From: Caulobacter sp.
GTDB lineage: Bacteria; Pseudomonadota; Alphaproteobacteria; Caulobacterales; Caulobacteraceae
DNA: 64,000 bases
Direction: 5' to 3'
Assembly (NCBI GenBank): GCA_028291265.1
Contig: JAQGIK010000064.1
Coordinates: 6,082-70,081, forward strand
The notes under the pieces were generated by a model that saw nothing but the letters and a program-made list of their open reading frames with translations, was not told the DNA's origin and did not search any database. Within the stretch, counting starts at the first letter, position 1, and the number at the start of each line of letters is the position of its first letter. This document shows, in pieces, positions 7,436 to 30,421 of the stretch. The position numbers were made by a program, and so were the translations under genes.

Positions 7436-8773
7436 GTGGAGCGACTGCTCGCGGGCAAGATCAGTGCGGTCTCGGGCTTGCTTTGGCCTGGGGCAATGCT
7501 CGCGGTGGTGCTGCTGTTCGCCGCGCCGGCCGCCGCGCAGGCTGTGCACAACGGCGTCGGTAGCTGCGCGGGCTCGACCTGTCATGGGCGCAGCGCCGGC
7601 GACGGCGCCGTGGTGCGCCAGAACGAACTGGTCGTCTGGCAGGACTATACCAGCGCCGCCGGGGCCCACTCCAAGGCCTGGCGCAGCCTGCAGACCCCCT
7701 GGGCCCAGAAGATCGCCGACCGGCTGGGCATGGGCGAAGCCGCCCGCGCCCCGGCCTGCCTCGGCTGCCACACCGACAACGCCGTCCGCCGCGGGCCGAC
7801 CTTCCAGGTTTCCGACGGGGTCGGCTGCGAGTCCTGCCACGGCGGGTCCGAGGGCTGGCTGGCCAGCCACTACACGGTCGGGGCCAGCCGCGCCGACAAT
7901 CGGGCGCGCGGCATGCGAGCCCTGGAAGATCCGCGGGTGCTGGCCAGCACCTGCCTCGACTGCCACTTCGGCAGCGACAAGCCCGGCCAGTTCGTCAGCC
8001 ACCGCATGATGGCCGCCGGCCATCCGCGCATGAGTTTCGAACTGGACCTGTTCAACAGCTACCAGAACCACGCCCGCAAGCGTTCGGTCAGCGGCGTGAC
8101 CAGCTGGGCGGTCGGCCAGGCTATGGCGCTCGAGCGGTCGCTGACCCTGTTCGCCTCTTCGAAGGGCAGCGAGGGGGTATTCCCCGAATTCTACTTCTTC
8201 GACTGCCACAGCTGTCACCGGGCGATCAGCGACGAGGCCAATCCGCCGGTGCGGTTCGGGACCAATCCCGGCCGGCCCATCGTCTGGGGGGCGCCGCCCT
8301 ACAACGACGAGAACATGATCCTCCTCAACGCCGCCGCCAGGGTCGCCGCACCGGAACTGGCCGACCGCTTCGCCGCCGACTCCAAGGCCTTCCACCAGGC
8401 GATGGGCGGCGATCGGGCCGGCATGCTGAGCGCCGCGAGCCGCCTGAACGCCACCACCAGGCAGCTGGGCAATCGCTTCGCCGGGCGGGGCTTCGGCGAC
8501 AAGGACACCGTCGCCATCCTGCGGCTGGTGCTCGGCGACGCCTTGACCGTTCGCTACACCGACTACAGCGGCGGGGCCCAGGCGGTGATGGCCGTCGACA
8601 CCCTGCTGACCGCGGCGGTCAACCAGGGCGCGGTATCCAGCGGCGCGGCCGGCGGCATGCGCCGCGACATCGAGGCGGCCTACGCCGCCGTCCGTGACCC
8701 CAACGCCTATCGACCGGGCGACTTCCGCGCGGCCCTCGGCCGGGTGCGAAGCGCCCTGGAGCGCGCCACATGA
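7436..8773 (+). CDS. Exported multiheme cytochrome c (c554-like; 4 CxxCH plus one CxxxxCH)
   Basis: Signal peptide ending AAA-Q; CAGSTCH, CLGCH, CESCH, CLDCH, CHSCH. Start may be the ATG at 7496. Confidence 0.85.
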   Translation: MERLLAGKISAVSGLLWPGAMLAVVLLFAAPAAAQAVHNGVGSCAGSTCHGRSAGDGAVVRQNELVVWQDYTSAAGAHSKAWRSLQTPWAQKIADRLGMGEAARAPACLGCHTDNAVRRGPTFQVSDGVGCESCHGGSEGWLASHYTVGASRADNRARGMRALEDPRVLASTCLDCHFGSDKPGQFVSHRMMAAGHPRMSFELDLFNSYQNHARKRSVSGVTSWAVGQAMALERSLTLFASSKGSEGVFPEFYFFDCHSCHRAISDEANPPVRFGTNPGRPIVWGAPPYNDENMILLNAAARVAAPELADRFAADSKAFHQAMGGDRAGMLSAASRLNATTRQLGNRFAGRGFGDKDTVAILRLVLGDALTVRYTDYSGGAQAVMAVDTLLTAAVNQGAVSSGAAGGMRRDIEAAYAAVRDPNAYRPGDFRAALGRVRSALERAT

Positions 8774-10755: not shown

Positions 10756-10757
10756 CG

Positions 10758-15600: not shown

Positions 15601-16587
15601 AACGCCACCTGCATGGCCCTGCCGACCAACCAGCCGATCAACCCGCTGCGCAACACGCCGATGATGCAGCAGGAAAACCTCGAACAGCCCTTCCACCCCA
15701 TTTACCACTACGCCTTCGTCACCGACGCGAAGGAGGGGTTGATCGCGGTCAACGTCGACACGCTTGCCGACGGCGACCCACGCAACAACAAACTGAAGCG
15801 CGCGGTGACCTGGAACCCCGGCGGGGTGCTGAACGGGGCCCGCCACATCACCCTGGCCGGCCGCTATGCCTACATCGCCGCCACCTCGGGCCTCGTGGTC
15901 GTCGACCTCGACGATCCGCTCAAGCCTCGCCATGTGACCACCGTGCCGCTCGCCGACGTGCGGGCCAGCGCCGTGCAGTTCCGCTACCTGTTCGTCACCG
16001 ACCGCGAAGGGGTGCGGGTCCTGGACGTCACCCGTCTCGACCGCCCCGTGGTCATCCCCGGCGCCGTCGTGCCGCTGGCCGATGCGCGCCGCCTCTACGC
16101 CGCCCGCACCTACCTCTATGTGGCGGCCAAGGCCGAGGGCCTGGTCATCCTCGACATCGAGCGGCCCCGCGCGCCCCGCATCGCCCAGCGCATCACCTTC
16201 GACGGCCGGCTGAACGACGCCGAGGACGTGGTCATCGGCGCCACCAACGCCAGCCTGTTCGCCTACGTCGCCGACGGCCGCAATGGCCTGAAGGTCCTGC
16301 AGCTGACCAGCCCGGCCAGCCAGCCCAACTTCTACGGCTTCAGCCCCGCCCCGGTCCCCGAACTGATCGCCTGGGCGAAGACCAGGACGCCGGCCTTCGC
16401 TCTGTCCCGCGGCCTCGACCGCGACCGCGCCGTCGACGAGACCGGCAACCAGATGGCCGTCTTCGGCCGCCTGGGCTCGCGACCCTTCAACAGGAGCGAG
16501 ATGGAACGGCTGTTCCTCAACCCGCAGGGCGAGGTCTATCGGGTGACCGACACGCCCAGCATGGCCGACTGGCTGGCGGGCCGCTAA
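12685..16587 (+). CDS. 1300-aa exported decaheme cytochrome c with C-terminal LVIVD-type beta-propeller
   Basis: Signal peptide; ten CxxCH (CMSCH, CADCH, CGACH, CASCH, CMNCH, CADCH, CKDCH, CFTCH, CGGCH, CTDCH); about six Y(A/L/M)(Y/F)V...G(L/F/V)xVxD(V/I/L) repeats in the C-terminal third. Confidence 0.88.
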   Translation: MGRKGIKRWLLGALAIAASVLVVGGLTTASALARAEEEEMPVARTYVAAPPAKAGQAPAEAKAKSAGCMSCHSPVDSVSMHASEAVVIGCADCHGGDAGASLPAGTAKDSASYVAVRDRAHVLPRYPKAWGWPGSANPKRSYSLLNRESPAFIRFVNPGDYRVARQACGACHMGLIEANERSLMATGAMFYGGASYNNGVLPFKRYMVGESYTPDGETAKIVSPGKPAGTVTEAEARRGALPVLYPLPTWQVVPPGDVFRVFERGGRNIGTQFPEIGLPNPTGQTQRLEEAGRPDIRQSNRGPGTGLRIAVPVLNIHKTRLNDPYTWFLGTNDQPGDYRSSGCASCHVVYANDREPRHSLTYAQFGRDGQSQTADPTIDKAAPGHPLKHVFSRAIPTSQCMNCHMHQPNMFLNSFLGYTMWDYESDAPSMWPKKQKYPSDKDIRETNDRNPEGAAPKGLWGDLDFMREVYGLNKNLKDTQFADYHGHGWNIPGVLKRDRAGNLLDKDGKIVSPDDPEKWRRKGEGEFVQPGVNPGKTVHMMDIHAEKGMQCADCHFAQDSHGSGLIMGEVASAVEISCKDCHGNARKYPNLRTSGPAAPPGGADLMVLRNPDGQRRFEWLERDGRRVLMQRSIVDPKLEWEVSLVKDAVDPTSPTFNAKSARAKLMSKGVAGQKPFAFGSGVADKDLAHPEAEIACFTCHTSWTPSCGGCHLPIEANWKAESHKDKGGETRNFATYNPQVARDDMFQLGKHQLTRGGIIAPVRSSSALVLSSTNINRERIYVQQPPISAAGFSSQAFAPHFPHTVRTTETKTCTDCHVSAAEDNNAIMAQLLTLGTGTVNFVGMHAWVGAEGGFEAIRVTEWDEPQAVLGSYLQKYAYPDFYGMHVSKNRLQLMNWTRKARDGGVEEFANVRQGAGGDVRCLQLRGEYMYVAEGRGGFRVYDVASIGNKGVSERIVTAPFSGAGHDTQVASANATCMALPTNQPINPLRNTPMMQQENLEQPFHPIYHYAFVTDAKEGLIAVNVDTLADGDPRNNKLKRAVTWNPGGVLNGARHITLAGRYAYIAATSGLVVVDLDDPLKPRHVTTVPLADVRASAVQFRYLFVTDREGVRVLDVTRLDRPVVIPGAVVPLADARRLYAARTYLYVAAKAEGLVILDIERPRAPRIAQRITFDGRLNDAEDVVIGATNASLFAYVADGRNGLKVLQLTSPASQPNFYGFSPAPVPELIAWAKTRTPAFALSRGLDRDRAVDETGNQMAVFGRLGSRPFNRSEMERLFLNPQGEVYRVTDTPSMADWLAGR

Positions 16588-17337: not shown

Positions 17338-17793
17338 ATGGAGACCAACAAGGGTCAGTTCGCAGGTCGGATGATGCGTCCCATTTCCCTGGTCGTCGTC
17401 TCGCTGCTGGTCGGCTCGCCGCTTGCCGCCGGGCCGGCCGCCGCCACCGGCCTGTCCCATCCGGCGCGGGCGCCCAACGAGAAAGACGCCGCCGCGATTG
17501 TCGCCAGGCCGGTGTGGCTGCAGCGTCCGACCAAGGCACAGCTCGAAGCGGCCTACCCGCGTATGGCGCTTCGTCGAAACGTCTCCGGCCTGGCGGTTCT
17601 TTGGTGCAGCGTCCGTCCCGACGGCTGGCTGCGTGACTGTCGGGTCGTTTCCGAGACTTCAACCGGCTACGGCTTTGGCCAGGCCGCCATCGACGTCAGC
17701 CCCCGGTATCGGTTGGCCAGCAAGGACGCCCTTGGCCGTAGGGTCGCGGGCCGGTTCGTTCGCTTCAGCGTCGTCTTCCGGACTCCCGACTAA
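17338..17793 (+). CDS. TonB C-terminal domain protein
   Basis: Hydrophobic N-terminus, then AYPxxA...SGxAVLxCxVxPDGxLxDCxVVSE...GFGxAA, the alphaproteobacterial TonB_C pattern. Confidence 0.75.
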   Translation: METNKGQFAGRMMRPISLVVVSLLVGSPLAAGPAAATGLSHPARAPNEKDAAAIVARPVWLQRPTKAQLEAAYPRMALRRNVSGLAVLWCSVRPDGWLRDCRVVSETSTGYGFGQAAIDVSPRYRLASKDALGRRVAGRFVRFSVVFRTPD

Positions 17794-18659
17794 TGCCCGG
17801 CTGAGCCCTCGGCCCGCTCATGGGCCAGGTGCTTGAGGAACCCCTGCATCTTCACCGTATAGCGGGCCAGGATCTTGGCCCGGCCCTGTTCGTCGGTGTC
17901 GGTGTAGTGGCTGACCAGGGCCTTGCCGTTCCACCAGTGCAGGCCGATGCCGGGCGGGCCGGCGACGATCATCGGGCGGTCGTCGGGGTTGTCCAGGTTC
18001 ATCGGGTCAAGGTCGAGCACGACCTGCGGCTGGGTCGAGGGACAGACCCGCACGGTCGTCCCCCCGAACGCCGAGATGATCGGCCGGTGTACGTGGCCCG
18101 CCAGGATGGCGACGATGTTGTTGTGCCGGGCGACGATGGGCTCCAGCCGGGCGACCCAGGCCTCCGACGGGCCGATGGTCATCCACTCGATGCCGGTGTC
18201 GATGGGCGGGTGGTGCATGACCACCAGGGTCGGCCGGTCGGACTCGGCCAGCCGCTGTTCCAGCCAGGCGGCGCGGGGCTCGTCGAAGCCGCCGCCGTGA
18301 CGGCCGGTTTCGAGCGTGTCGAGCACCAGGATGCGCAGCGGCAGATTGTCGACGGCATACTGGTTGAAGCCGCCCGAGAAGGGGGCGTTCGGATAGACCT
18401 GGCGGAAGACGTCGCGGTTGTCGTGGTTGCCCATGCAGAACAGGACCGGCATGGCCAGCTTGTCGAGGATCTTCTTCAGCCGCTTGTAGCTGGGCAGGTC
18501 GCCGTGGTCGGTGAGATCGCCGGTGGCCAGCACCAGGTCGGGCCGCGGCGCCAGTTCGTTCAGCGTCTTGACCACCAGGCGCAGGCGCTTGGCGTTGTCC
18601 TCGAAGTCCCCGCCGGAGCCGAAGCCCAGGTGCAGGTCGGTGATCTGGGCGATCAGCAT
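17790..18659 (-). CDS. cpdA: Class III metallophosphoesterase (CpdA/GpdQ-like cyclic-nucleotide phosphodiesterase)
   Basis: Motifs DLH, GDLTD, GNHD, HHPP, GHVH; last gene of the cyclase operon. Substrate not proven. Confidence 0.8.
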   Translation of the reverse strand: MLIAQITDLHLGFGSGGDFEDNAKRLRLVVKTLNELAPRPDLVLATGDLTDHGDLPSYKRLKKILDKLAMPVLFCMGNHDNRDVFRQVYPNAPFSGGFNQYAVDNLPLRILVLDTLETGRHGGGFDEPRAAWLEQRLAESDRPTLVVMHHPPIDTGIEWMTIGPSEAWVARLEPIVARHNNIVAILAGHVHRPIISAFGGTTVRVCPSTQPQVVLDLDPMNLDNPDDRPMIVAGPPGIGLHWWNGKALVSHYTDTDEQGRAKILARYTVKMQGFLKHLAHERAEGSAGH

Positions 18660-18708: not shown

Positions 18709-20973
18709 TTACTTATCTTCCGCTTGATACACCCCGTCCCAGTCCGCCGCCGGCGGGCTCAAGCTGTATCGTGCGATACGTTCGGCGAAGAGTCCCGCCA
18801 GTTTTTCGATTCCGAACACAGCGCCCGCAGCTCTCACGCGAGTTAGGGCGGTTTGCGCCGCCGTCCACTGCTGTCCGCGATAGGCGGCCAGCATGTCGGC
18901 GAAGGCGGTTTTCATCGCCTGGAAATCCTTGTCGCCGGCCATCACCGGCCGCCCCAAAAGGGCGAAGATGCGCTCCGGGGTGTCTCGTCCGACCACCCGC
19001 ACCTGGTCGACTTCGAGCTGGGCGAACTCCGGGATTTCCCTGGCCAGGGTCTGGCCCATCAGGATCGGCACGCCATAGACTTTGGTCAGACCCTCCAGCC
19101 GCGAGGCCAGGTTCACGGCGTCGCCGATCAGGCTGTAGCTCAAGCGTTGGCGCGAGCCCATGTTGCCGACGCAGCAGCGGCCGGCGTTGAGGCCGATGCC
19201 GATGGCGATGTCGCCTGGCCAGGGACCAACCAGGCCGCTCTGGCGGGCGTTCATCTCCTTCATGGCGTCGATCATGTCGAGCGCCGCGTTGGCTGAGTTG
19301 CGGTACTGGTCCGGGTCGTCCAGCGGCGCGTTCCAGAAGGCCAGCACGGCGTCGCCGATGTATTTGTCGATGGTCGCCTTGCGGGCCAGCAGGGCCTCGG
19401 TCAGCGGGGTGAGCAGCTCGATCAGGAAACTGATCAGTTCCTGCGGGGCCATCTTCTCGCTGATCCGCGAGAAGCTGCGGATGTCGCTGAACAGGACGGT
19501 CATGTCCCGCTCCTCGCCGCCCAGTTCGAGCTGTCCCGGATCGCGGGCGATGCGCTCGACGAGCTCCGGCGAGAGGTACCGGTCGAAGGCGCGGCGGATG
19601 TAGGCCCGCGAACGCTCTTCCCGATAGAAGCTGAAGCTGGTGACCAGGGTGTAGACCAGGGCGATGGTCAGCACCGGCATGGTCGGCTCCAGCAGCAGGC
19701 CGTTGTAGCGGAACGAAACCCAGGAGGCGGCCATGGTGCCCGCCAGCGACAGAGCGGCGATCAACCCGCTGCGCAGCGCGCCCAAGGTTGGGGCGAGGAA
19801 GGCCAGGGCCAGGCCGAACAGCACCACCAGCACCCGCTCCAACCCCAGCGCCCAATCGGGCCGTGACAGGAACTTGCCGAGAATTATCTGTTCGGCGGCC
19901 TGGGCGTGGACGATCACCCCCAACTCGTTCGCATTCAGGGGGGTTGCGACCAGATCGCGCAGACCGACCGCGCCGGTCCCGACGAACACCAGCTTGCCCT
20001 CGAACTTTTGCCTTATCTCCTCGGGGCTGAGCTCGCCGGTCAGGATGCGCCAGGCCGGCACGATCCGTTCGGGGCGGTCGGCGGTGTAGTGCATCCACAG
20101 CTCGCCCCCCTGTGTGGTAGGCGCCTCGTACTGGCCGACCTTGACGGCGACTACCGCGACCTGGCCGCCGGAAAACTCGCCGCTGGCGTCGGCGCCCTTG
20201 ACCATGATGGCCCCGGCCCCCTGGGCCACGCGCAGGGCCTCCAGCGACAGGGACGGCACGATCCGTTCGCCGATGCGGGCGACCAAGGGCACGCTGCGGA
20301 TGACGCCGCCCCCCCGGTTCACCACATTGACGAAGCCGGCCCCCGCCGCCTTCTCGGCAATGGCTGGCAGGGTCGGGATGGCGCCGTTGAAGGCCGGTAA
20401 GGCGCTCATCGGCGGGGTGCCGACCGCCACCACCCCGGCTGGCTCGAACGGGCGCGCCTTGTTGGGGGTTTCTGTCATAAAATAGCTGGCCACGGTCGGG
20501 CCGTTGGCCATGGCTTGGCCGAACAGCAGGTCGTGGTCGGGTAGGGCCGCGATGTCGGCGTAGTCGCCCTTGGCCTGCGGGTTCTGCCGCAATAGCTCGG
20601 CGGCGCGCGAGGGGCTGGTGCGGTCGGGCTCGCTGAACACCACGTCGAAGGCGATAGCGGCGGCGCCGGAGTCGGTCAGGGCCTGGGTCAGGCGGGCGGT
20701 GTCGGTGCGCGGCCACGGCCACTGTCCAAGGCGCCGGATCGTCTCGTCGTCGATGTCGACCACGCGGACGTCGGCGTCTTCATACGGCCTCGGATAAAGA
20801 CGCTGATAGCTGTCGAACACCAGGTTGCCGAGGTTCGAAAGGACCGCCGGCTGCCATAGGTGGATCAAGGCAATGATCAGGGTGACCACCAGCCCCGGGG
20901 CGGCGGACTTCATGGTTTGGACCCAGCCGGCGCTCTGGCCTGCGCGGGGCTTGCGGGCCCTTTTCTCGCTCAT
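18709..20973 (-). CDS. CHASE2-domain class III adenylate cyclase
   Basis: N-terminal TM, CHASE2 (VVDIDD...GQWPWPR...FDVVFSEPDR), three TMs, catalytic LFSDIRSFS, DKYIGDA and YSLIGDAVNLASRLE. Confidence 0.93.
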   Translation of the reverse strand: MSEKRARKPRAGQSAGWVQTMKSAAPGLVVTLIIALIHLWQPAVLSNLGNLVFDSYQRLYPRPYEDADVRVVDIDDETIRRLGQWPWPRTDTARLTQALTDSGAAAIAFDVVFSEPDRTSPSRAAELLRQNPQAKGDYADIAALPDHDLLFGQAMANGPTVASYFMTETPNKARPFEPAGVVAVGTPPMSALPAFNGAIPTLPAIAEKAAGAGFVNVVNRGGGVIRSVPLVARIGERIVPSLSLEALRVAQGAGAIMVKGADASGEFSGGQVAVVAVKVGQYEAPTTQGGELWMHYTADRPERIVPAWRILTGELSPEEIRQKFEGKLVFVGTGAVGLRDLVATPLNANELGVIVHAQAAEQIILGKFLSRPDWALGLERVLVVLFGLALAFLAPTLGALRSGLIAALSLAGTMAASWVSFRYNGLLLEPTMPVLTIALVYTLVTSFSFYREERSRAYIRRAFDRYLSPELVERIARDPGQLELGGEERDMTVLFSDIRSFSRISEKMAPQELISFLIELLTPLTEALLARKATIDKYIGDAVLAFWNAPLDDPDQYRNSANAALDMIDAMKEMNARQSGLVGPWPGDIAIGIGLNAGRCCVGNMGSRQRLSYSLIGDAVNLASRLEGLTKVYGVPILMGQTLAREIPEFAQLEVDQVRVVGRDTPERIFALLGRPVMAGDKDFQAMKTAFADMLAAYRGQQWTAAQTALTRVRAAGAVFGIEKLAGLFAERIARYSLSPPAADWDGVYQAEDK

Positions 20974-22817
20974 TGCCCTGTCCCCCAGGTGATGGCGCGG
21001 CTTTGCACGGCGATGGCCTTGGACCCCTTTGCCGGCTCCTTGCGGGTCGGCCGGATCGGCGCGTGATAGCTGTGGCAGTCGGCGCAGTCGGCCCCGGCCG
21101 CCTGTTTGACCTTGGCCCGGTCGGCCCCGTGGCAGGACTGGCAGGTCGCGAGCCTGGGCAGCAGCAGGTCCTTGGCCGTCCCCGACTTGCCGGCGGCGTG
21201 GCAGGTCGCACAGGCCGGCTGGCCGTCGGGGCCTTTCGAATGTTCGGGGATGTCGTGGTTGAAGGTCCCCTCGGTCAGCCAGGCGTCGGCCAGCTTGACC
21301 GGCCCGGCTCGCCAGACCAGCGAGCCGTCCGTCGGCGGCGAGGCGCCGTGACAGCCGAAACAGGTCCCGCCCGGCGAGAACAGGCCACGGATACGCTGGG
21401 CGGCGCTGGCGGTGACGCCGCTGTAGACCTCCGGATCGCCGGGCCGCCGGCGGCCCATGGTCGGGCCGCTGCGGGAGACTACGCCGCCGCCCCCGGAGAA
21501 GAAGCTCACCAGTTTGCGGGTGTCGCCGTGCGGCAGGGCGCCAATCGAATGGCAGGCGCCGCAGGCCGCTTCCATCTTCACCGGCAGGTAGTTACCGCCC
21601 TTCGGTTCTTCCTTGTGGCAGCTCTGGCAGTCGAGCGGGGCGCCATAGCCGCGTCCCGCGCCCAACGAGATCGCCATGCGCGCCGGGCCGCCGGTGCGCG
21701 ACAGGTGCAGGTCGTGCGGGAAGATCAGGCCGCTGTTCTCGGACGGGTGGGCGGCCATGGAGATGCGGCGAACCTGCAGCGGCGAGGGCGAGACGGTGAC
21801 CAGGGGCGCCAAGTCCGGGTGGCGGCCCCAGTCGGCGACGTTGGCCAGCCTGGTGTCCTTCAGCCGGCGGTCGAGCCCGGCGTGACAGGCGGTGCAGCTG
21901 TGCGCCGTCTGCAGGGTCGGCTTGGCGTGGTCGGGATCGCCCAGCGGATCGCCGATGTGCTCGACGTGGCAGCTGGCGCAGCGCTGCTGCGGCTTGTTGA
22001 ACACCTTGCGGGCGTAGTCGAAGACCTGCTCACCCCAGCCGTCCGGGGCCGGCGTGCCCCAGACCAGACGGCGCAGCCCGGCGTGGTCGGCGACGGTGCG
22101 CAAGGGCTGGTCGGGCGCGCCCCTGGTCTTGAGGCGGGCGACGGTCGCCTGCAGTTGGGCGGGCGTCTGGCTGGCCGTGTGACAGCTCTGGCAGGCGTCG
22201 TCGCGCACGGCGACGAAAGCTTGCTGGTGACAGGCCTGGCAGTCGTTCTCGAGGAAGGCGTGGGTCTTCGACAGCGGGCCCGACGACCACTGGCTGTCGA
22301 GATCGATCTTCGGATGGCTGCCGAACACGCCATAGACGGCCAGCACCGGCAGGATCAGGCTGAGCACGGCGATCAGCAGGAAACCCGTCCAGGCGATCCG
22401 CCGCTTGCCCAGCACCTTGGCGCGGGGGATCAGGGTCGCCGGGGTGGCGACATCGCCCTGGCCGGGGGCGGCCTCGACGCGGCTCAGGGTCAGGATGACC
22501 TCATCGCCCTGGCCGGGGCCGATGGTCAGCAGGTGGTCGCCGAAGCTGAGCTCGGGGACGTCGCTGATCTTGACCACGGCGCTCTTGGTGAAGCGGCCGT
22601 CGACGCCGAACGGCTGGTCGCCCACCGCCTGGATGCGCAGGCGGCCGAGGCCCTCCTGGCTGAGAGTGGCGTGGTGGATGCTGACCGCCAGGTCGGGCAC
22701 ACGGATCTCGCAGTCGGCGCCCCGGCCGATGCGAAGAGGCCCTTCGGCATAGGTCTTCTTGCGGACGATCTCGCCGCCGGCGGCCCGTTTGGTGATCTGG
22801 CGAAGGGTGAAGCTCAT
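20970..22817 (-). CDS. FHA domain - TM - decaheme cytochrome c
   Basis: IGRG...VSIHHA FHA signature, one TM helix, ten CxxCH (CQACH, CQSCH, CASCH, CTACH, CQSCH, CGACH, CFGCH, CATCH, CQSCH, CADCH). Confidence 0.88.
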   Translation of the reverse strand: MSFTLRQITKRAAGGEIVRKKTYAEGPLRIGRGADCEIRVPDLAVSIHHATLSQEGLGRLRIQAVGDQPFGVDGRFTKSAVVKISDVPELSFGDHLLTIGPGQGDEVILTLSRVEAAPGQGDVATPATLIPRAKVLGKRRIAWTGFLLIAVLSLILPVLAVYGVFGSHPKIDLDSQWSSGPLSKTHAFLENDCQACHQQAFVAVRDDACQSCHTASQTPAQLQATVARLKTRGAPDQPLRTVADHAGLRRLVWGTPAPDGWGEQVFDYARKVFNKPQQRCASCHVEHIGDPLGDPDHAKPTLQTAHSCTACHAGLDRRLKDTRLANVADWGRHPDLAPLVTVSPSPLQVRRISMAAHPSENSGLIFPHDLHLSRTGGPARMAISLGAGRGYGAPLDCQSCHKEEPKGGNYLPVKMEAACGACHSIGALPHGDTRKLVSFFSGGGGVVSRSGPTMGRRRPGDPEVYSGVTASAAQRIRGLFSPGGTCFGCHGASPPTDGSLVWRAGPVKLADAWLTEGTFNHDIPEHSKGPDGQPACATCHAAGKSGTAKDLLLPRLATCQSCHGADRAKVKQAAGADCADCHSYHAPIRPTRKEPAKGSKAIAVQSRAITWGTGQ

Positions 22818-22824
22818 GCCCGCC

Positions 22825-23697
22825 TCACCAGTAGATGAAGACGCTGACGATGTGCGCGGTCAGCGCCATCAGCAGGGCGATGGAAGCGGGGACGTGAATA
22901 GCCAGCCAGGCCCCCAGCAGGGTGCGGATGCGCAGGTGCTTGCGCAGTTGCAAGAGGGCGGCGCTCTTGCGGTCGAGCAGGGCGGTGACGTTGCCGATGG
23001 CGGCCCGTTCGCTCTCGCTGGCCCGGCGGATGAGGCCCTTCAGCTTGCGCAGCGCCCGCCGGGTGCCGCAGTCCATCGGCCGGGTGCTCAGCCTGCGGAA
23101 GAAACCGCCGCCGACCTTGCTCTTCTCCAGCGACAGCCGCACCGCCGCCGCCTGGCGCTGGTTCAGCGGCTGGGCCGCGTCGTTGAGCTGGCGGTCGAGG
23201 CTGCGGATGGTCTCGACCATCTGCTTCTGGGTGGTCTCGCGGCGGTTGTTGCTGAGGGCCTTGGGCAGGCCGGCGTAGGCGATGATGCCGTAGACTCCCG
23301 ACAGCACGACGAGGATCATCAAGGCATAGGCGAGCGTATGGATGTTCCAGCCGAACTGCAGCCCGCTGTGCAGGGTGGCGATGGCGACCAGGGCGATGCC
23401 CAGATAGACGTGGGCCGAGACCCAGGCCTTCAGCGACCAGTCGCCCTTGGTGATCACCCGCTTGCGGATGCCCAGCGCCGTCAGCCAGACGATCAGCAGG
23501 GCGCCGATGGTCCCGAGCGTATAGCCGTACCAGCTGCCGCCATTGGGCCTGGGGTGCACATCGGCCAGCACATAGCCGACCGCCGCCGCGATGCTCAAGG
23601 CCAGTCCGACCCAGGCCCAGCGATAGCCGGCATGGCGCAGGAAGCCGACATGGACCTGGGCGTTCGACCGCTTTCCCTTGCGCGGCGCCCTGGCCAT
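22825..23697 (-). CDS. Integral membrane protein with two His-x13-His helices (di-heme b / ferric-reductase-like)
   Basis: About five TM segments; AHVYLGIALVAIATLH and IHVPASIALLMALTAH. 1-nt gap from the upstream gene. Confidence 0.7.
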   Translation of the reverse strand: MARAPRKGKRSNAQVHVGFLRHAGYRWAWVGLALSIAAAVGYVLADVHPRPNGGSWYGYTLGTIGALLIVWLTALGIRKRVITKGDWSLKAWVSAHVYLGIALVAIATLHSGLQFGWNIHTLAYALMILVVLSGVYGIIAYAGLPKALSNNRRETTQKQMVETIRSLDRQLNDAAQPLNQRQAAAVRLSLEKSKVGGGFFRRLSTRPMDCGTRRALRKLKGLIRRASESERAAIGNVTALLDRKSAALLQLRKHLRIRTLLGAWLAIHVPASIALLMALTAHIVSVFIYW

Positions 23698-23698
23698 C

Positions 23699-26146
23699 TC
23701 AGCTCTCGCCCCGCACGCGGGTGACGGTCAGGAAGTCCTCGGGCGAGACCCGGATCGCCGCCCCGGTCGGGCAGGCCCGCACGCAGGCCGGACCCCCGTC
23801 GATGCCGGCGCACATGTCGCATTTGATGGCGACCTTGGGCTTCTCGCCGTGCTTCTTCTTGGCCTTGGTCTTCCACTCGAGGTCCGGCTCGCCGGGCCCG
23901 GGTCCGGCCCCGAACAGGAACCAGCTCAGGAGGCCCGGCTTCTGCGGCGGCGGGCTGTCCATGCGGATCACTCCGTAAGGGCAGTTGCGCTGGCAGTTGC
24001 CGCAGCCGATGCAGGTCTCGTCGATGAACACCTCGCCGTCGGCCCCGCGCCGGATGGCGTTGGGCGGGCAGTCGGTCATGCAGTAGGGGTGCTCGCAGTG
24101 CCGGCAGCTGGTCGGCACATGCAGGTTGGCGTAGGTGCGGCCCGCCTCGCGGTCCAGTCGCGACAGCCCGTCATGAACGTCGGCGCAGGCCTTCTCGCAG
24201 TTGTCGCAGCCGACGCAGAGGGTCTCGTCGATCAGCAGCACGTCGGTGGCCTCGCCGATGCCCTGGTCGACCAGGAAGTCGGCCACGGAGCTGTAAAGAT
24301 CGACCACCCCGCTGAAGCGGTCCTTCTGCTCCTCGATGTAGCTGTTGATCTGTTTGCGGGACCGCATGTCCTCCCGCATCTTGGCTTCGAGTTCGGGCTT
24401 GCGGGCCAGCAGCCGCCGGAACAGATCGCCGTCCAGCCGCACCACTTCGGAGCGGATCGCCGCCCGCACCGTCGCCGTCCGTCGGCCGCCGTCGATCAGC
24501 GCCATCTCCCCGACATACGACCCGGCCGGGACATAGTTGAGGAACACCGTCTTGCCGCCGATCTCCTTTTCGATGGTCATCGAGCCGGAGCGGATGATGA
24601 AGATGTCGTAGCCTTCCTCACCCTCGTTGATGATGGCGTCCTCGGCCTTGACCTGCATGAGCTCGGCGCTGGTCAGCACCTCGACGATGTCTTCCTTGGT
24701 CAGGCCCGAGCCGAAGATCTGCAGCATCTGGCGTTCGGTGGTGATGCGGTTGACCGTCTCCCGCGCGTCCTTGTTCTGGGCCATCAGCCGCAGGCTGGCC
24801 GTGCGTGGCATCTCCAGCAGGATGCAGGGCTCGGCCGCACGGATCGTCGCCCCGCGGCGGCGGCCGGATATGAGGCCCACCTCGCCGAAGATGGAGCCCT
24901 GGCCGATCGGCACCGTCTCGCGCCGGTTCTTCGGATTGACCTCGACCTTCACGGAGCCGGCGGCGATGCCGAACATCGAGGAGCCGATGGAATTGCGCTG
25001 GAAGATGACCTCGTCCGGCGCGCAGACCCGCACCGAGGAATCGAGCAGGAACTCCCGCATCTGCAGGGTTGACAGGCCGTTGAGGATTTCGATCCGTGTG
25101 CGGAGGAATTCCAGCCACTCGGCCACCGACTGGCCGCCGGGCAGGGCCGCCAGCTTGGCCTCGAGGATCGGTTCGTCGGCGGGTTTCAGGCCGAGGTTGC
25201 CGGTGATGAACTCGATGACATCGTAGCCCTGGTTCATGCAGTGCTTGATCAGCGGATAGCCGGCCAGGGCCCCGATGACATAGATGCCGGGCGCGGTGGT
25301 TTCGAAGGTCGGCGACAGGCGCGGAAAGGCGTCGCGGTCCGCGCTCGTGAAGGCCACGCCCATGGCCTCGACGAACTTGCGCGGCGGGGCCGAGCCCATG
25401 CGGGCGATGATCCGGTCACAGCGGATCGACTGCTGCCCTTCCGGTGTGTCGATGGTGATGAAGCCGGGGTCGACCCGGGCCGGACTGGAGCCCGCCAGGA
25501 TGGTGATCCGGCCGGCCGCCGCCGCGTCGGTCAGGGCCTTGACGTTGGCCTCCTTGGCGCGCGCGAAATCCATCGACTTGTTGAGCAGGGTGACGGTGTT
25601 GCCCTGGGCCTGGTCGGCGATCAGGCCCAGCGCGTTCTCGATGCCGGCGTCGCCGCCGCCGACCACGACGATGTGCTCGTCGACGTACTCGGTCGGGTCG
25701 TCGAGCGTGTACTGGATGTGCTTCAGGTCGCTGCCCGGCACGGTCATGACGTTGGGGTTGCCCTGGGTGCCGATGGCCAGCACCACGGTCTCGGCCTTCA
25801 GCACCCGGCCGTCGGTCAGGGTGATGGTGAAGTCGCCGCGCGATCCGGCGACGGAGGCGGCCTCGGCCCTGTAGGCGACATTGACCTTGTGGCCGCCCGT
25901 CTCGCTGTTCCAGCGGTCGAGGATGGTCTCGCGCTTGCCGGCCTCGAAACCGATGTCCGAGCGCAGCACCAGCTGCGTCGGGGTGGCCATGATGTGCTTG
26001 CCGCGCTGGTAGCGGAAGATGGTGTCGGAGAGGCGGTCGGTCTTCTCCAGCAGGACGTGACTCATCCCCCGGCGGGCGGCGCGCGCGGCGGCGCTGAGGC
26101 CGGCCGGCCCCGAGCCCAGGATCGCAACCCTGTAGACTCCCTCCAT
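23699..26146 (-). CDS. Fusion: FAD/NAD(P)-dependent oxidoreductase (TrxB/YpdA-like) + two cNMP-binding domains + 4x[4Fe-4S] ferredoxin (815 aa)
   Basis: Start MEGVYRVAILGSGPAG at 26146; second Rossmann motif VVGGGDAG; FGEVGLISGRRRGATIRA and VGEMALIDGGRRTATVRA; 16 Cys in four DmsB/NrfC-like cluster motifs. Confidence 0.9.
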   Translation of the reverse strand: MEGVYRVAILGSGPAGLSAAARAARRGMSHVLLEKTDRLSDTIFRYQRGKHIMATPTQLVLRSDIGFEAGKRETILDRWNSETGGHKVNVAYRAEAASVAGSRGDFTITLTDGRVLKAETVVLAIGTQGNPNVMTVPGSDLKHIQYTLDDPTEYVDEHIVVVGGGDAGIENALGLIADQAQGNTVTLLNKSMDFARAKEANVKALTDAAAAGRITILAGSSPARVDPGFITIDTPEGQQSIRCDRIIARMGSAPPRKFVEAMGVAFTSADRDAFPRLSPTFETTAPGIYVIGALAGYPLIKHCMNQGYDVIEFITGNLGLKPADEPILEAKLAALPGGQSVAEWLEFLRTRIEILNGLSTLQMREFLLDSSVRVCAPDEVIFQRNSIGSSMFGIAAGSVKVEVNPKNRRETVPIGQGSIFGEVGLISGRRRGATIRAAEPCILLEMPRTASLRLMAQNKDARETVNRITTERQMLQIFGSGLTKEDIVEVLTSAELMQVKAEDAIINEGEEGYDIFIIRSGSMTIEKEIGGKTVFLNYVPAGSYVGEMALIDGGRRTATVRAAIRSEVVRLDGDLFRRLLARKPELEAKMREDMRSRKQINSYIEEQKDRFSGVVDLYSSVADFLVDQGIGEATDVLLIDETLCVGCDNCEKACADVHDGLSRLDREAGRTYANLHVPTSCRHCEHPYCMTDCPPNAIRRGADGEVFIDETCIGCGNCQRNCPYGVIRMDSPPPQKPGLLSWFLFGAGPGPGEPDLEWKTKAKKKHGEKPKVAIKCDMCAGIDGGPACVRACPTGAAIRVSPEDFLTVTRVRGES

Positions 26147-26278: not shown

Positions 26279-28255
26279 ATGAGCGCCGAAATCGGCCAGT
26301 TCGCCCTGATCCTCGCCTTCGTGCTGGCGCTGGTTCAATCCGTGGTGACGATGTGGGGCGCCCACCGTCGCGATGACGCCCTGATGGCGCTCGGCCGCAT
26401 GGCCACGCTGCTGCAGCTTTTCTTCGTGGTCATCGCCTTCGGGGCCATCGCCTGGGGCTATGCGACGCTCGACTTTTCGGTCGAGCTGGTCGCCCGCCAC
26501 AGCCACACGACCCAGCCGCTCGCCTACCGCCTGGCCGCCACCTGGGGCAGCCATGAGGGCTCGATGGTGCTGTGGATCCTGATCCTGGCGCTGCACGGTG
26601 GGGCCTTGGCCGTGTTCGGCCGCCCCCTGCGGACGACCTTCCTGTCGCGGGTGCTCGGCATCCAGGGCCTGCTCGGCGCCGCCTTCCTCGGCTTTTCGCT
26701 GTTCACGTCCAATCCCTTCCTGCGTCTATCGCCCGCGCCACTCGAAGGGACCGAGCTCAATCCGCTGCTGCAGGACCCCGGCCTGATCAGCCACCCGCCG
26801 CTGCTCTACCTCGGCTACGTCGGCTTCAGCGTCGCCTTCGCCTTCGCCCTCGCCGCCCTGATCGAGGGCCGGGTCGACGCCGCCTGGGCGAGATGGGTGC
26901 GGCCCTGGGTGCTGTTCGCCTGGACGTCCCTGACCGTCGGTATCGCGCTCGGCAGTCACTGGGCCTACTACGAGTTGGGCTGGGGCGGCTGGTGGTTCTG
27001 GGATCCGGTCGAGAACGCCTCCCTGATGCCCTGGCTGATGGGCACCGCCCTGCTGCACAGCGCCCTGGTGCTGGAAAAGCGCGGGGCCCTGATCAGCTGG
27101 ACCCTGCTGCTTTCTATCCTCACCTTCTCGCTCAGCCTGATCGGCACCTTCCTGGTCCGCTCGGGCATCCTCAACAGCGTCCACGCCTTCGCCGTCGACA
27201 GCGCCCGCGGCGCCTATGTCCTGGCCTTCTGCGTGTTGGCGACGGGCTCGGCCCTGGCCCTCTACGCCTGGCGGGCCCCGGCCATGCGCACCGGCGCCGT
27301 CTTTGGTCCCATCTCCAGGGAGGCCGGGATCACGCTCAACAACCTGGTGCTGGTGGTGGCCACGGCGACCGTCTTCCTCGGCACCTTCTATCCGCTGCTC
27401 TACCCGCTGATCAGCAATGGCGGCACCATCACCGTCGGCCCGCCCTTCTTCAACCTGATCTTCCTGCCGTTGTTCGCCATCCTCCTGACCCTGGTCGGCT
27501 TCGGCCCTCTGCTGCATTGGAAGCGGGATGCGGTGAAGGCCATCCTCGTCCGCCTGCGCTGGCCGCTCGGCCTGTTCGTCATCGCGCTGCTGGTCGGGAC
27601 CTTCGCCTTCGGCCTCGGCAAGACCCTGGCCGCCTTCGGCATCGCGCTGGGCGTCTGGCTGATCGCCGCCGGCGGCCTCCTGCTCGTGCGCCGCTGGGGC
27701 CTGGGCTCGAAGAGCGCCGCCGCCAACTGGAGCCTGGTCCGCACCACGCCGGTCGCCATCTGGGCCGTGGCCCTGGCCCACACGGGCCTCGGCGTCACCT
27801 GCGTTGGGGTCACCGCCATGGGCGGGTTCGAGGCCAGCAAGGTGCTGCGCATGGGCCCCGGCGACCAGGTCGAGTTCGCCGGCCGCACCGTCATCCTCGA
27901 CAGCCTCGGCGAGGTCGCCGGCCCCAACTACCAGGCCGACCGCGGGGTCTTCCGCATCGTCGGCGGGCGCGGCCCCAGACAGCTGATCTCCGAGCGCCGC
28001 TTCTACCCCTCCAGCCAGAGCCAGACCATCGAGGCGGCCATCGGGCCGTCGCTGGTCGGCAATCTCTACATCTCGGTCGGTGAGCGCGACCAGGCCGGCA
28101 AGGCCGTCATCCGGATGTGGAACCACCCCTTCGTCGGCTGGATCTGGGGCGGCGCCATCCTGATGGCGCTCGGCGGCCTCATTTCGCTCAGCGACCGCCG
28201 CCTGCGCCTCGGCGCCCCCCAGCCGTCCCGCAAGACCGTCGAGGCCGCCGCATGA
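26279..28255 (+). CDS. ccmF: Cytochrome c heme lyase CcmF/NrfE
   Basis: WGGWWFWDPVENASL (WWD domain), WGSHEGS, HPPLLYLGY, SVHAFA. Confidence 0.96.
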   Translation: MSAEIGQFALILAFVLALVQSVVTMWGAHRRDDALMALGRMATLLQLFFVVIAFGAIAWGYATLDFSVELVARHSHTTQPLAYRLAATWGSHEGSMVLWILILALHGGALAVFGRPLRTTFLSRVLGIQGLLGAAFLGFSLFTSNPFLRLSPAPLEGTELNPLLQDPGLISHPPLLYLGYVGFSVAFAFALAALIEGRVDAAWARWVRPWVLFAWTSLTVGIALGSHWAYYELGWGGWWFWDPVENASLMPWLMGTALLHSALVLEKRGALISWTLLLSILTFSLSLIGTFLVRSGILNSVHAFAVDSARGAYVLAFCVLATGSALALYAWRAPAMRTGAVFGPISREAGITLNNLVLVVATATVFLGTFYPLLYPLISNGGTITVGPPFFNLIFLPLFAILLTLVGFGPLLHWKRDAVKAILVRLRWPLGLFVIALLVGTFAFGLGKTLAAFGIALGVWLIAAGGLLLVRRWGLGSKSAAANWSLVRTTPVAIWAVALAHTGLGVTCVGVTAMGGFEASKVLRMGPGDQVEFAGRTVILDSLGEVAGPNYQADRGVFRIVGGRGPRQLISERRFYPSSQSQTIEAAIGPSLVGNLYISVGERDQAGKAVIRMWNHPFVGWIWGGAILMALGGLISLSDRRLRLGAPQPSRKTVEAAA

Positions 28256-28791
28256 GGCGCCTGGCCTTCATCGTCCCGGTCATCGTCTTCCTCGGCATCG
28301 CCGCCGTGCTGGCCGTCGGCCTCGGTCGCGATCCGAAAATCCTGCCCTCGATGCTGATCGGCAAGCCGTTGCCGACCTTCAACCTGCCCGACGTCCGCGC
28401 CGGCACGGGCGGCCGGGGCCTCGCCTCAGCCGACTTCCACGGCAAACCCGGCCTGATCAACGTCTTCGCCAGCTGGTGTGTCTCCTGCCGCATCGAGCAC
28501 CCCTTCCTGATGCGTCTCAAGGCCGAGGGCGTCTCGATCCACGGCCTCAACTGGAAGGACAAGGGCGACGCCGGAGCCCGCTGGCTGACCCGGTTCGGCG
28601 ACCCCTACGACCGCGTCGGCTACGACCCGACGGGCCGCACCGGCATCAACCTCGGCGTCACCGGCGCCCCCGAGACCTTCGTCATCGATAGCAAGGGCGT
28701 GGTCCGCTACCGCTACGTCGGCCCGATCACGCCGGAGGTCTGGGCCACCACCCTGAAACCCCTGCTCGACAAGCTGGAGGCCGAAGCATGA
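28252..28791 (+). CDS. ccmG: Thiol:disulfide interchange protein CcmG/DsbE
   Basis: N-terminal anchor, NVFASWCVSC, LGVTGAPETFVID; ATG overlaps the ccmF stop. Confidence 0.93.
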   Translation: MRRLAFIVPVIVFLGIAAVLAVGLGRDPKILPSMLIGKPLPTFNLPDVRAGTGGRGLASADFHGKPGLINVFASWCVSCRIEHPFLMRLKAEGVSIHGLNWKDKGDAGARWLTRFGDPYDRVGYDPTGRTGINLGVTGAPETFVIDSKGVVRYRYVGPITPEVWATTLKPLLDKLEAEA

Positions 28792-29246
28792 AGCGTCTCC
28801 TCGCCCTCGTCCTCGCCTTGACCGTCGTCGCCGGCCCGGCCCTCGCGGTCCTGCCCGAAGAACAGCTCAAGGACCCGGTTCTCGAGGCCCGCGCCCGCCA
28901 TCTCAGCAAGGAACTGCGCTGCGTCGTCTGCCAGAACCAGACCATCGACGACAGCGACGCCCCCCTGGCCGCCGACCTGCGCGCTATCCTGCGCGAGCGG
29001 CTGGTGGCCGGCGACAGCGACAAGCAGGCCAAGGCCTATCTGGTCCAGCGCTACGGCGACTTCGTGCTGCTGAAACCGCCGATCAATCCCGCCACCCTGT
29101 TCCTCTGGTTCGGCCCGGCCCTGCTGCTGCTCGGCGGCGGCTTTGGCGTCTGGCGCTACTGGCGCGGCCGGTCGGTCGCCGCCCCGGCCCCGCTCGACCC
29201 CGAAGAACAGGCCCGGCTCAAAGCCCTGCTGAGCGAGACATCATGA
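28788..29246 (+). CDS. ccmH: Cytochrome c biogenesis protein CcmH/CycL
   Basis: LRCVVCQNQTIDDS motif and YGDFVLLKPP. Confidence 0.95.
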   Translation: MKRLLALVLALTVVAGPALAVLPEEQLKDPVLEARARHLSKELRCVVCQNQTIDDSDAPLAADLRAILRERLVAGDSDKQAKAYLVQRYGDFVLLKPPINPATLFLWFGPALLLLGGGFGVWRYWRGRSVAAPAPLDPEEQARLKALLSETS

Positions 29247-30421
29247 TCCTCTGGATGGTCCTCACCCTGCTGGTCGCCCTGGCCGTGGTCGGCCTAGTCA
29301 TCCCCCTGACCCGGCCGCGCAAGAGCGTCGACGCCGCCGCCACCCCGACCGGCATCCTCGCCGACCAGCTGACCGAGCTCGACGCCCAGGCCGCCGCCGG
29401 GACCGTCACCGCCGACGAGGCCGCCCGGCTCAGGCTGGAGATCGAGCGCCGCATGCTGGCCGAGGCCAAGGGCCCCGAAGCCCCCGCCCGTCCGTTGAGT
29501 GAAAAGGCCCTGCTGGGCCTGGCCCTCGGCCTGGCCGTCGTCGTCGCGCTCGGCGCCACCGGCCTCTACGCGGTGATGGGCAAACCCGACATTCTGTCCG
29601 CCAACGCCCAGGCCGCCGGCCCGCCGGGTTCGGCCAGCTTGGCCGCCAACCACCCCGGCGGCGACGTGCCCGCCATGATCGCCCAGCTCAAGGCCCAGGT
29701 GGAGCGCAACCCGTCCGACCCGGAAGGCTGGCGGATGCTCGGCTGGTCCTACTTCCAGAGCGGCCAGTTCGACGAGTCCGCCGCCGCCTACGACAAGGCT
29801 GCGACCAACGATCCGACCAACCCCGAGCACCGCTCGGCCCAGGGCGAGTCCCTCGTCCAGGCCGCCGGCGGCCAGATGACCCCGGCCTCCTCCGCCGCCT
29901 TCCGTCAGGCCCTCAAGCTCGACCCGAACGACCCCCGCGCCCGCTACTTCCTGGCCGTCGAGAAGGACCAGGCCGGCGACCAGGACGGGGCCATGGCCGA
30001 CTGGATCGCCCTGATCAATTCGGCCCCGGAGGGCGCCCCCTGGGTCGGCGAGGTCCGCAACTTCGTCGAGGACCTGGCCCGCGAACGCGGCCTCGACCTG
30101 ACCGGCAAGCTGAAACCCGTCAGCGGCGGCGGCGGCCCGCGCGGCCCCAGCGCGGACGACGTCGCGGTCGCCCAGAAGATGACCCCCGACGACCAGCAGC
30201 AGATGATCCGCGGCATGGTCGAGGGCCTCGAAGGCCGTCTGCAGGAACAGCCCCGCGACGCCGAAGGCTGGATCCGCCTGATGCGCGCCCGCATGGTGCT
30301 GGGCGAACCGGCGGCCGCCTCCCGGGCGCTGAAACAAGGCCGGGCGGCGTTCGCCGACTCCCCGTCCGACCAGGCGCGGATCAGCGAGGCGGCGAAGGGG
30401 CTGAAGGTGCCGGGGGCCTAA
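29243..30421 (+). CDS. ccmI: Cytochrome c biogenesis protein CcmI/CycH (TPR)
   Basis: Two N-terminal TMs, leucine-zipper-like loop, TPR-like periplasmic region; follows ccmH. Confidence 0.9.
   Translation: MILWMVLTLLVALAVVGLVIPLTRPRKSVDAAATPTGILADQLTELDAQAAAGTVTADEAARLRLEIERRMLAEAKGPEAPARPLSEKALLGLALGLAVVVALGATGLYAVMGKPDILSANAQAAGPPGSASLAANHPGGDVPAMIAQLKAQVERNPSDPEGWRMLGWSYFQSGQFDESAAAYDKAATNDPTNPEHRSAQGESLVQAAGGQMTPASSAAFRQALKLDPNDPRARYFLAVEKDQAGDQDGAMADWIALINSAPEGAPWVGEVRNFVEDLARERGLDLTGKLKPVSGGGGPRGPSADDVAVAQKMTPDDQQQMIRGMVEGLEGRLQEQPRDAEGWIRLMRARMVLGEPAAASRALKQGRAAFADSPSDQARISEAAKGLKVPGA

Follow-up and report, generated by a model that had tools for sequence, protein, structure and literature searches.

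We report on a gene at 22825..23697 of a 64,000-nucleotide window from Caulobacter sp. (contig JAQGIK010000064.1 of assembly GCA_028291265.1; the window is the whole stretch of DNA that was analysed, and positions in it are counted from its first letter). The product of this gene, referred to below as the target, carries the database name 'hypothetical protein'. We consider it reasonably probable that the target is a transmembrane dihaem b-type cytochrome in a route that leads from NAD(P)H to a decahaem cytochrome across the inner membrane and that is gated by a cyclic nucleoside monophosphate (cNMP). Judged from its sequence, the target very probably holds two b-type haems. It is a new member of a family that has been described from sequence and never characterised, whose members we call IMPs after the 'conserved inner-membrane protein' of the published description that is taken up below.

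The case for two haems begins with the arrangement of four histidines. The open reading frame (ORF) translation contains W92-VSA-H96-x13-H110 on the third transmembrane helix (TM3; ...SAH96-VYLGIALVAIATL-H110SG...) and W264-LAI-H268-x13-H282 on TM5 (...AIH268-VPASIALLMALTA-H282IV...), and the two His-x13-His helices that had been picked out in the first-pass annotation of the window are thus both in place, with H96/H110 in TM3 and H268/H282 in TM5. An SGxxG motif (S133-G134-V-Y-G137) lies on TM4. Hydropathy and an AlphaFold2 model (AF2; predicted local distance difference test, pLDDT, 93.2; predicted template-modelling score, pTM, 0.86) place the five helices at about residues 27-45, 59-77, 91-111, 119-145 and 262-288, and also delimit an insert of about 115 residues between TM4 and TM5 that is helical, rich in lysine and arginine, and cytoplasmic. 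Lysine and arginine residues together number 6 in the N-terminus, 3 in loop 2 and 27 in the insert, against 1, 0 and 0 in the remaining loops, a positive-inside distribution that indicates an N-in, C-out topology with the N-terminus and the insert in the cytoplasm. On this topology, predicted from the hydropathy, the AF2 model and these residue counts, the cytoplasmic leaflet would hold H96 and H268, and the periplasmic leaflet H110 and H282. A spacing of about 14 residues between histidines on each of two helices is the classic bis-haem arrangement of NOX, ferric reductases and cytochrome b. No conserved histidine was found on TM1 or TM2 in the family alignments.

All four histidines are kept in 107 of 107 full-length members in an alignment of 117 representatives that share at most 50% mutual identity, and the nine exceptions to the pattern in this set are truncated or frameshifted sequences. 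Given this conservation, the four-histidine pattern can hardly be put down to chance. The first-pass annotation had named conservation of the four histidines among homologues as the point to be checked, and the alignment upholds it; conservation and leaflet positions together bear out its view that the histidines are placed for two stacked bis-His haems. In a second alignment of 84 sequences ten positions are invariant (G62, R80, H96, G100, H110, G134, P145, W264, H268 and H282), so that W264 of the TM5 motif and G134 of the TM4 motif are without variation, while their counterparts W92 and G137 are conserved at 97% and 98%, respectively. The triplet R78-K79-R80, the SGxxG motif and both tryptophans are likewise conserved across the family. 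The family itself is large: 5957 matches were recorded among the candidates scored in a database clustered at 90%, the 50%-identity cluster representatives number 2073 at E ≤ 1e-3 (199 of these at E ≤ 1e-30), and one genome scan found the family in at least 598 species. The operon behaves as an accessory element, being present in 5 of 61 genomes of the same genus, and any family member at all is present in 38 of 401 sampled genomes of the phylum.

The target gene stands in an operon that supplies candidate redox partners for both sides of the membrane, together with enzymes of cNMP metabolism:

22825..23697, minus strand: the target, an IMP/PtdF-like protein with five TM helices (290 amino acids), predicted to be a dihaem cytochrome b
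23699..26146, minus strand: cytoplasmic partner with a TrxR/YpdA-like FAD/NAD(P) domain that lacks CxxC, two cNMP domains and a 16-Cys ferredoxin domain of the DmsB/NrfC type (four [4Fe-4S]; PF13247)
20970..22817, minus strand: N-terminal FHA domain, one TM helix and a periplasmic decahaem cytochrome c (10 CxxCH)
18709..20973, minus strand: adenylate/guanylate cyclase with a CHASE2 sensor, in a 4-nt overlap with the cytochrome gene; proposed source of cNMP
17790..18659, minus strand: CpdA/SpdA-like metallophosphoesterase (cyclic-nucleotide phosphodiesterase), the last gene of the operon

The stop codon of the cytoplasmic partner gene lies 1 nt before the target ATG, and the start codon of the FHA-TM-decahaem gene lies 7 nt after the target stop; with gaps this short the target gene appears to be translationally coupled to both neighbours.

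We propose that NAD(P)H would reduce FAD in the TrxR-type, ferredoxin-reductase-like domain of the cytoplasmic partner, and that electrons would then pass from FAD through the four [4Fe-4S] clusters first to an inner and then to an outer haem b, next to the decahaem cytochrome c anchored in the membrane, and from there probably on to neighbouring cytochromes and a barrel protein. The inner haem would be ligated by H96 and H268 of the target and would lie close to the cytoplasmic face; the outer one, held by H110 and H282, would sit 14 residues along the helices from it, a distance of about 21 Å, close to the periplasmic face. The helical hairpin between TM4 and TM5, rich in lysine and arginine, would dock the four-cluster ferredoxin domain of the upstream protein. 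Such a route need not involve the quinone pool. The two cNMP domains, placed between the flavin and the iron-sulphur (FeS) modules, would act as a gate that follows the cNMP signal, with the CHASE2 cyclase as the source of the nucleotide and the operon's phosphodiesterase as its sink. The sequence work establishes the motifs and how well they are conserved, the topology, the synteny, the fusions and the domains that the partners contain; that the target binds haem, where the ferredoxin domain docks, that electrons flow outward and without quinone, and that cNMP gates the flow are what we infer for this system. Outward flow is favoured because the step from NAD(P)H (-320 mV) to the haems would be downhill, and because the membrane potential would assist the exit of electrons.

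Gene context in relatives argues in the same direction. The order flavo-FeS gene, IMP gene, FHA-decahaem gene is kept in all 80 Sphingomonadales and Caulobacterales loci that are long enough to show the triad, and also in three other lineages of Pseudomonadota; a phosphodiesterase gene adjoins the triad in most of the related Sphingomonadales and Caulobacterales loci, usually after it. Among distant loci (family hidden Markov model, HMM, E 1e-7 to 1e-25), a gene for a multihaem cytochrome c lies directly downstream of the IMP gene in 15 of 15, and these cytochromes mostly have 7, 10, 21 or 24 CxxCH.

On the cytoplasmic side, the partners found across the family are NAD(P)H-flavin/FeS modules of four unrelated designs. 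The first is that of the window, with a TrxR-like FAD domain, cNMP domains and 4Fe4S clusters in one protein. The second, seen in seven loci of the PCC4 or ptd type, is a protein with two or three cNMP domains and four [4Fe-4S] clusters that has no FAD domain, and a separate FNR-like, 2Fe-2S oxidoreductase is encoded two genes upstream in 3 of 3 loci checked. The third, of the Bradyrhizobium type (two loci), is a membrane-anchored protein with FNR-like and 2Fe-2S domains, and the fourth, which occurs in two unrelated families, is a NirB-like FAD module with a BFD 2Fe-2S domain that forms a single chain with the membrane domain. Two of these cluster types carry cNMP domains on the FeS partner, with a phosphodiesterase gene, a cyclase gene or both adjacent.

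The membrane protein and its putative donor are also found joined in one chain, in two forms:

L113:6380-9787 (genome G018), also in G042, G182 and P0221: fusion A, with no stop between the parts
L125:7869-9971 and L126:6702-8771: fusion B, Pyr_redox_2 + Rubredoxin_C + BFD-like 2Fe-2S + C-terminal HX13H membrane domain, 689-700 amino acids

Fusion A consists of the FAD-2x cNMP-4Fe4S protein and the IMP in one ORF of about 1110-1146 amino acids, and is present in three genomes of one genus as well as in P0221; a like fusion in Oceanospirillum was treated as a possible mis-annotation by He et al. 2017 (PMC5566968). In fusion B the loop between TM4 and TM5 is very short, and a multihaem cytochrome gene lies directly downstream (10 CxxCH in L125). 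The two fusions are independent, and both are consistent with an N-in topology. Four unrelated donors and two independent fusions constitute strong comparative evidence that the IMP exchanges electrons with a cytoplasmic FeS centre, and the recurrence of NAD(P)H-flavin/FeS partners together with the fusions favours a direct wire over a purely quinone-linked cytochrome b. The proposal of the first-pass annotation that the target forms a two-piece system with the upstream FAD/NAD(P)-FeS protein is likewise supported, by the 1-nt coupling, the synteny in 80 loci and the natural fusions. The link to cNMP that it drew is supported as well, since it recurs in two cluster types.

The family to which the target belongs was described by He et al. 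2017 (Front Microbiol 8:1584, PMC5566968) as the 'conserved inner-membrane protein' of PCC3, PCC4 and 'MHC + IMP + redox protein' clusters, with five TM helices, SGxxG on TM4 and Wx3Hx13H on TM3 and TM5. These authors likened the IMP to the FRD of NOX/FRE and to cytochrome b, and proposed two b haems and a contact with quinone; cNMP, FAD and FHA domains were not mentioned, and no significant homology was reported between the IMPs of PCC3 and PCC4. The target shares with their IMP the five TM helices, the SGxxG motif, both Wx3Hx13H motifs and an adjacent gene for a multihaem cytochrome c, and it has the neighbours by which the family is recognised, an FeS (PF13247/Fer4_11) gene upstream and a decahaem gene downstream. 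The Gallionella triads of their Table S6, with a redox protein of 796-805 amino acids, an IMP of 308-310 amino acids and a 9-haem cytochrome of about 550 amino acids, show the same architecture and size pattern as the triad of the window. More recently, Elbon, Stewart & Glass 2024 (bioRxiv 10.1101/2023.11.21.568154) named a PCC4-like cluster ptdABCDEFG, whose products include PtdE, with cNMP and 4Fe-4S domains, the transmembrane protein PtdF, described as 'ferric reductase-like', and the decahaem cytochrome PtdG, and they called the function of Ptd 'completely unknown'. Since they also drew the comparison with FRD/NOX, as He et al. had done before them, this idea is not new for the family.

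The gene order of the window matches PtdE-PtdF-PtdG, and a PtdD-like cytochrome is present in the window as well. The two systems differ in that PtdC (FNR-like + 2Fe2S) is a separate gene, whereas the window has a TrxR-like FAD domain fused to the cNMP-FeS protein, and in the extra FHA domain on the decahaem cytochrome of the window; the target is only about 25% identical to the ptd-type IMP. Unlike the IMPs of He et al., the target belongs to a separate subfamily, which is marked by a GWNxH motif, with N118 and H120, where TM4 begins on the periplasmic side. This motif is 97-98% conserved in the window's subfamily and is missing from the PCC3, PCC4 and short subfamilies in the sequence comparison, and may provide a contact to the FHA-decahaem cytochrome or to a haem propionate that is particular to this subfamily. 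As a fifth haem ligand or a quinone ligand of the whole family, H120 was rejected because it reaches 98% in the window's subfamily only, with E, A, S, G or N in its place elsewhere.

These subfamilies are nevertheless related to each other at the level of sequence. In BLASTP the target matches a ptd-like IMP (L114) at E 3e-9 and PCC3-like IMPs (L116 and L120) at E about 1e-8, and the family HMM matches PCC3-like and PCC4-like IMPs at E 1e-17 to 1e-25; the PCC3-like and PCC4-like comparison proteins were picked by gene context, not from the accession lists of the papers. The window, ptd/PCC4, PCC3, short Bradyrhizobium and fused types are all recognisably homologous (BLAST E 7e-4 to 3e-9, HMM E 4e-8 to 3e-25). 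Relative to He et al., what appears to be new is this homology, which joins all types of IMP, PCC3 with PCC4 included.

A few members of the family call for separate mention. P0219 and P0237, of 474-483 amino acids, resemble a frameshifted read-through of the IMP gene into the FHA-cytochrome gene, and are likely to be assembly or annotation artefacts. In the PCC3-type locus L116:2341-7961, two large cytochromes, one of 612 amino acids with 24 CxxCH and one of 1261 amino acids with 46 CxxCH, are encoded directly downstream of the IMP homologue. The short Bradyrhizobium homologues of about 234 amino acids (P0271 and its relatives) are named 'iron reductase' by NCBI, without an NCBIfam HMM match. 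A link between these proteins and FrcB, reportedly a Bradyrhizobium dihaem ferric reductase (Small & O'Brian 2011), is suspected, and the name may have to do with FrcB.

Profile searches leave the target outside the described families. No Pfam or NCBIfam model reaches its cut-off for the target, and the description 'unannotated' that the first-pass annotation gave it continues to apply; nor was any NCBIfam model found that matches any IMP subfamily. PF01794 (Ferric_reduct) gave the target 14.7 bits (E 0.032), short of its cut-off of 28, and matched only 4 of the 84 homologues at E < 0.01 (best 1e-3), and a search of the whole genome with this model returned MsrQ only, elsewhere in the genome. 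PF01292 (Ni_hydr_CYTB, prokaryotic cytochrome b561) scored the target at 12.9 bits against a cut-off of 30.1; its sub-threshold matches at E < 0.01 in 40 of the 84 homologues (best E 3.8e-8) make it the Pfam family most often matched, and the best individually scored homologue, at 30.0 bits, falls just under the cut-off. Sub-threshold matches to DUF4405 occur in 8 of the 84. Profile-profile comparison with hhalign, run with and without the insert, gave probabilities of 0.6-1.6% against 20 MsrQ/FRD proteins and of 1-3% against 29 local PF01292/CybB-type members, which counts as weak negative evidence, the target alignments being shallow and drawn from one order only. When the PDB was searched with the target sequence and with the 84-sequence profile, only chance matches to coiled coils were returned.

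The layout of the helices was compared with both families. With PF01794 the target agrees in its histidine pairs on TM3 and TM5 and in their x13/x13 spacing, but disagrees in having five and not six TM helices and in the 115-residue insert. The FdnI-type pattern of PF01292 is a four-helix bundle with haem ligands on three helices, TM1, TM2 and TM4 (two), and this layout is not that of the target, whose candidate ligands are on two helices, two on TM3 and two on TM5. Judged by sequence and fold, the target is best treated as a separate family of its own, probably one of the transmembrane dihaem cytochromes b in the broad sense; that it belongs to the NOX/ferric-reductase family is not demonstrated.

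The proposed system nonetheless has recognisable counterparts. With the NOX/FRD proteins (NOX2/5, SpNOX, FRE1, MsrQ) it shares the histidine pairs on TM3 and TM5, two stacked b haems (predicted in the target), the export of electrons from cytoplasmic NAD(P)H/flavin (as proposed here) and a bolt-on signalling domain. It differs from them in the absence of a significant sequence or fold match, in the number of TM helices and the insert, and in its flavoprotein, which is a separate polypeptide of the TrxR/YpdA-like, two-Rossmann type and not FNR-like (FNR-like partners occur in other IMP subfamilies); moreover, four FeS clusters stand between flavin and haem, and a cytochrome c takes the place of O2 or Fe(III) as the proposed acceptor. 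The functional picture of the first-pass annotation, a NOX-like reductase by analogy, is largely supported by comparative genomics. As a statement of family membership, its label 'NOX/ferric-reductase-like core' finds no support in any of the tests (PF01794 at 14.7 against 28 bits, hhalign at most 1.6%, no Foldseek match), and the protein has five TM helices instead of six, a TrxR-like instead of an FNR-like flavoprotein and interposed FeS clusters.

In formate dehydrogenase-N, a DmsB/FdnH-type FeS protein feeds a dihaem cytochrome b. The window resembles this FdnH-FdnI pair in its combination of a DmsB-type 4x[4Fe-4S] protein with a predicted transmembrane dihaem cytochrome b, as well as in the 40 of 84 homologues that match PF01292, and both the FeS domain and these weak matches fit the reading of the target as a dihaem cytochrome b. 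The resemblance has its limits, as the FeS protein is cytoplasmic here and periplasmic there, all PF01292 scores remain under the cut-off and a quinone site is not evident. A further precedent is given by TmcABCD, HmcA-F and DsrMKJOP, which link a periplasmic multihaem cytochrome c, a membrane cytochrome b and a cytoplasmic FeS protein, and in which transfer need not end in quinone. They share this layout with the window as it is read here, but their cytochrome b is of the NarI/HdrE type, their cytoplasmic protein is HdrD-like with CCG domains, and they have neither a flavin/NAD(P)H module nor cNMP domains.

Several observations weigh against the gated, outward route that we propose. Solved structures offer no significant counterpart: Foldseek searches of the PDB with the target model and with the model of a short-loop Bradyrhizobium homologue (pLDDT 80) gave no match at E ≤ 0.001, no NOX, STEAP or DUOX in the top 50, and no cytochrome b match. 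The test is weakened by the long cytoplasmic helices, which dominate both models and are reflected in the top, non-significant matches to BAR domains, sensor bundles and ABC-exporter helices. No flavoprotein gene was found near the PCC3-type members in the loci examined, and the family can thus work without one, for instance with quinones. The gating by cNMP is read from the order of domains only. In the literature we found no experimental work on the family, haem binding in any member included, and for iron oxidisers the published proposal has electrons moving inward into the quinone pool (He et al. 2017, PMC5566968).

Among the alternatives, the one that survives best is a quinone-reactive cytochrome b, although we regard it as unlikely. 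The IMP would then link the periplasmic multihaem cytochrome to the membrane's quinone pool, in the manner of CbcL/CbcB, FdnI or the hydrogenase cytochrome b, and the flavo-FeS protein would be an accessory or regulatory source or sink of electrons. He et al. 2017 (PMC5566968) put this hypothesis forward, and it accommodates both the PCC3-type IMPs without an adjacent flavoprotein and the sub-threshold matches of 40 of the 84 homologues to PF01292, a quinone-reactive family. Those matches never reach the cut-off, however (30.0 against 30.1 bits at best), the hhalign probability stays at 1-3%, and no quinone-site motif was identified in the target; four NAD(P)H-flavin/FeS partner designs and two fusions point instead to a cytoplasmic FeS module as the normal redox partner.

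A wire that runs inward, from Fe(II), Mn(II) or reduced humics through the decahaem cytochrome and the two b haems to the FeS/flavin protein and on to NAD(P)+ or another cytoplasmic acceptor, is less probable still, and we think it improbable. Redox cofactors are reversible, members of the family are found in iron oxidisers, and in the literature a PCC3 IMP gene is up-regulated in Sideroxydans CL21 during iron oxidation. Reduction of NAD(P)+ (about -320 mV) by donors at the level of Fe(II) would, however, be steeply uphill, and the inward movement of electrons would presumably have to oppose the membrane potential in an operon without an energy-coupling subunit. That the target binds no haem at all seems to us very improbable. 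Its histidine pairs would in that case bind a metal ion or form a channel or sensor, and the protein would anchor the FHA-cytochrome and the cNMP protein or transduce signals for them. In favour of this reading, no published haem evidence was found for any family member, and the long cytoplasmic hairpin, which looks like a coiled coil, is reminiscent of signalling or scaffold modules, sensor and BAR-type bundles being the top, non-significant Foldseek matches. Against it, histidines spaced 14 residues apart on two helices, each pair divided between the two leaflets, form the classic bis-haem arrangement, and redox proteins invariably flank the target on both sides of the membrane.

We thus retain the NAD(P)H-to-decahaem route as the preferred explanation for the target. 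Its extension to the IMP family at large is more tentative, and we regard it as possible rather than probable: the family may be the membrane core of a quinone-independent, NOX-like machine for export from cytoplasmic NAD(P)H to periplasmic and extracellular multihaem cytochromes, assembled at least four times from unrelated flavin/FeS donors. In this lineage it would be switched by a dedicated cyclic AMP circuit, which would consist of the CHASE2 cyclase, the phosphodiesterase and the cNMP domains within the path of the electrons.

Further genes of the window may belong to the same conduit or serve its maturation:

7436..8773, plus strand: c554-like multihaem cytochrome, with homology to tetrahaem PtdD-like cytochromes
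10758..12680, plus strand: 640-amino-acid protein without a Pfam match, a beta-barrel by the call of the first-pass annotation; candidate outer-membrane part of the conduit
12685..16587, plus strand: 1300-amino-acid multihaem cytochrome with LVIVD repeats; candidate outer component, placed in the system by its position only
26279..30421, plus strand: ccmF-G-H-I, cytochrome c maturation, divergent upstream of the operon

By phmmer (E 1e-7 to 1e-9), the cytochrome at 7436-8773 is homologous to cytochromes with 4 CxxCH whose genes lie directly upstream of the cNMP-FeS gene in PCC4/ptd loci. An HbpS-like lipoprotein and the 640-amino-acid protein (window 8770-12680) have homologues, at E 4e-138 and 2e-198, right after the triad in L111 (L111:12116-16301), which comes from a genome of a different family; from this arrangement, both proteins are probably part of the same system as the triad. 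The PtdD-like homology of the cytochrome and the neighbours in L111 tie the two halves of the window locus together. In Brevundimonas, Phenylobacterium and other loci, a ccmF gene is likewise found at this place, divergent from the operon. Just past the phosphodiesterase gene, on the opposite strand, lies an ORF of 151 amino acids with a TonB C-terminal domain (17338-17793). Elsewhere, near a ptd-like cluster, a protein of 743 amino acids (L127:3038-5269) matches the window phosphodiesterase in its N-terminal part and the catalytic domain of the window cyclase in its C-terminal part, and is an eraser-writer fusion.

The proposal bears on how electrons cross the inner membrane in the widespread PCC3, PCC4 and Ptd clusters, which are found in bacteria that oxidise iron, manganese or nitrite, in those of marine oxygen-deficient zones, and in sphingomonads and caulobacters. 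Comparison across genomes favours a direct link from NAD(P)H through flavin and FeS clusters to two b haems over the quinone link proposed earlier, and the natural single-chain fusions, of 689-1146 amino acids, offer compact constructs for biochemistry. If the proposal is true, the target and its partners would do in bacteria what the NADPH oxidases do, with a haem wire in place of O2 as the recipient of the electrons, and the flow of electrons in this operon would be controlled by a cyclic nucleotide. On the more tentative, family-wide reading, the system would represent a new class of respiratory or redox-balancing valve, and would supply the missing inner-membrane step of the PCC3, PCC4 and Ptd conduits.

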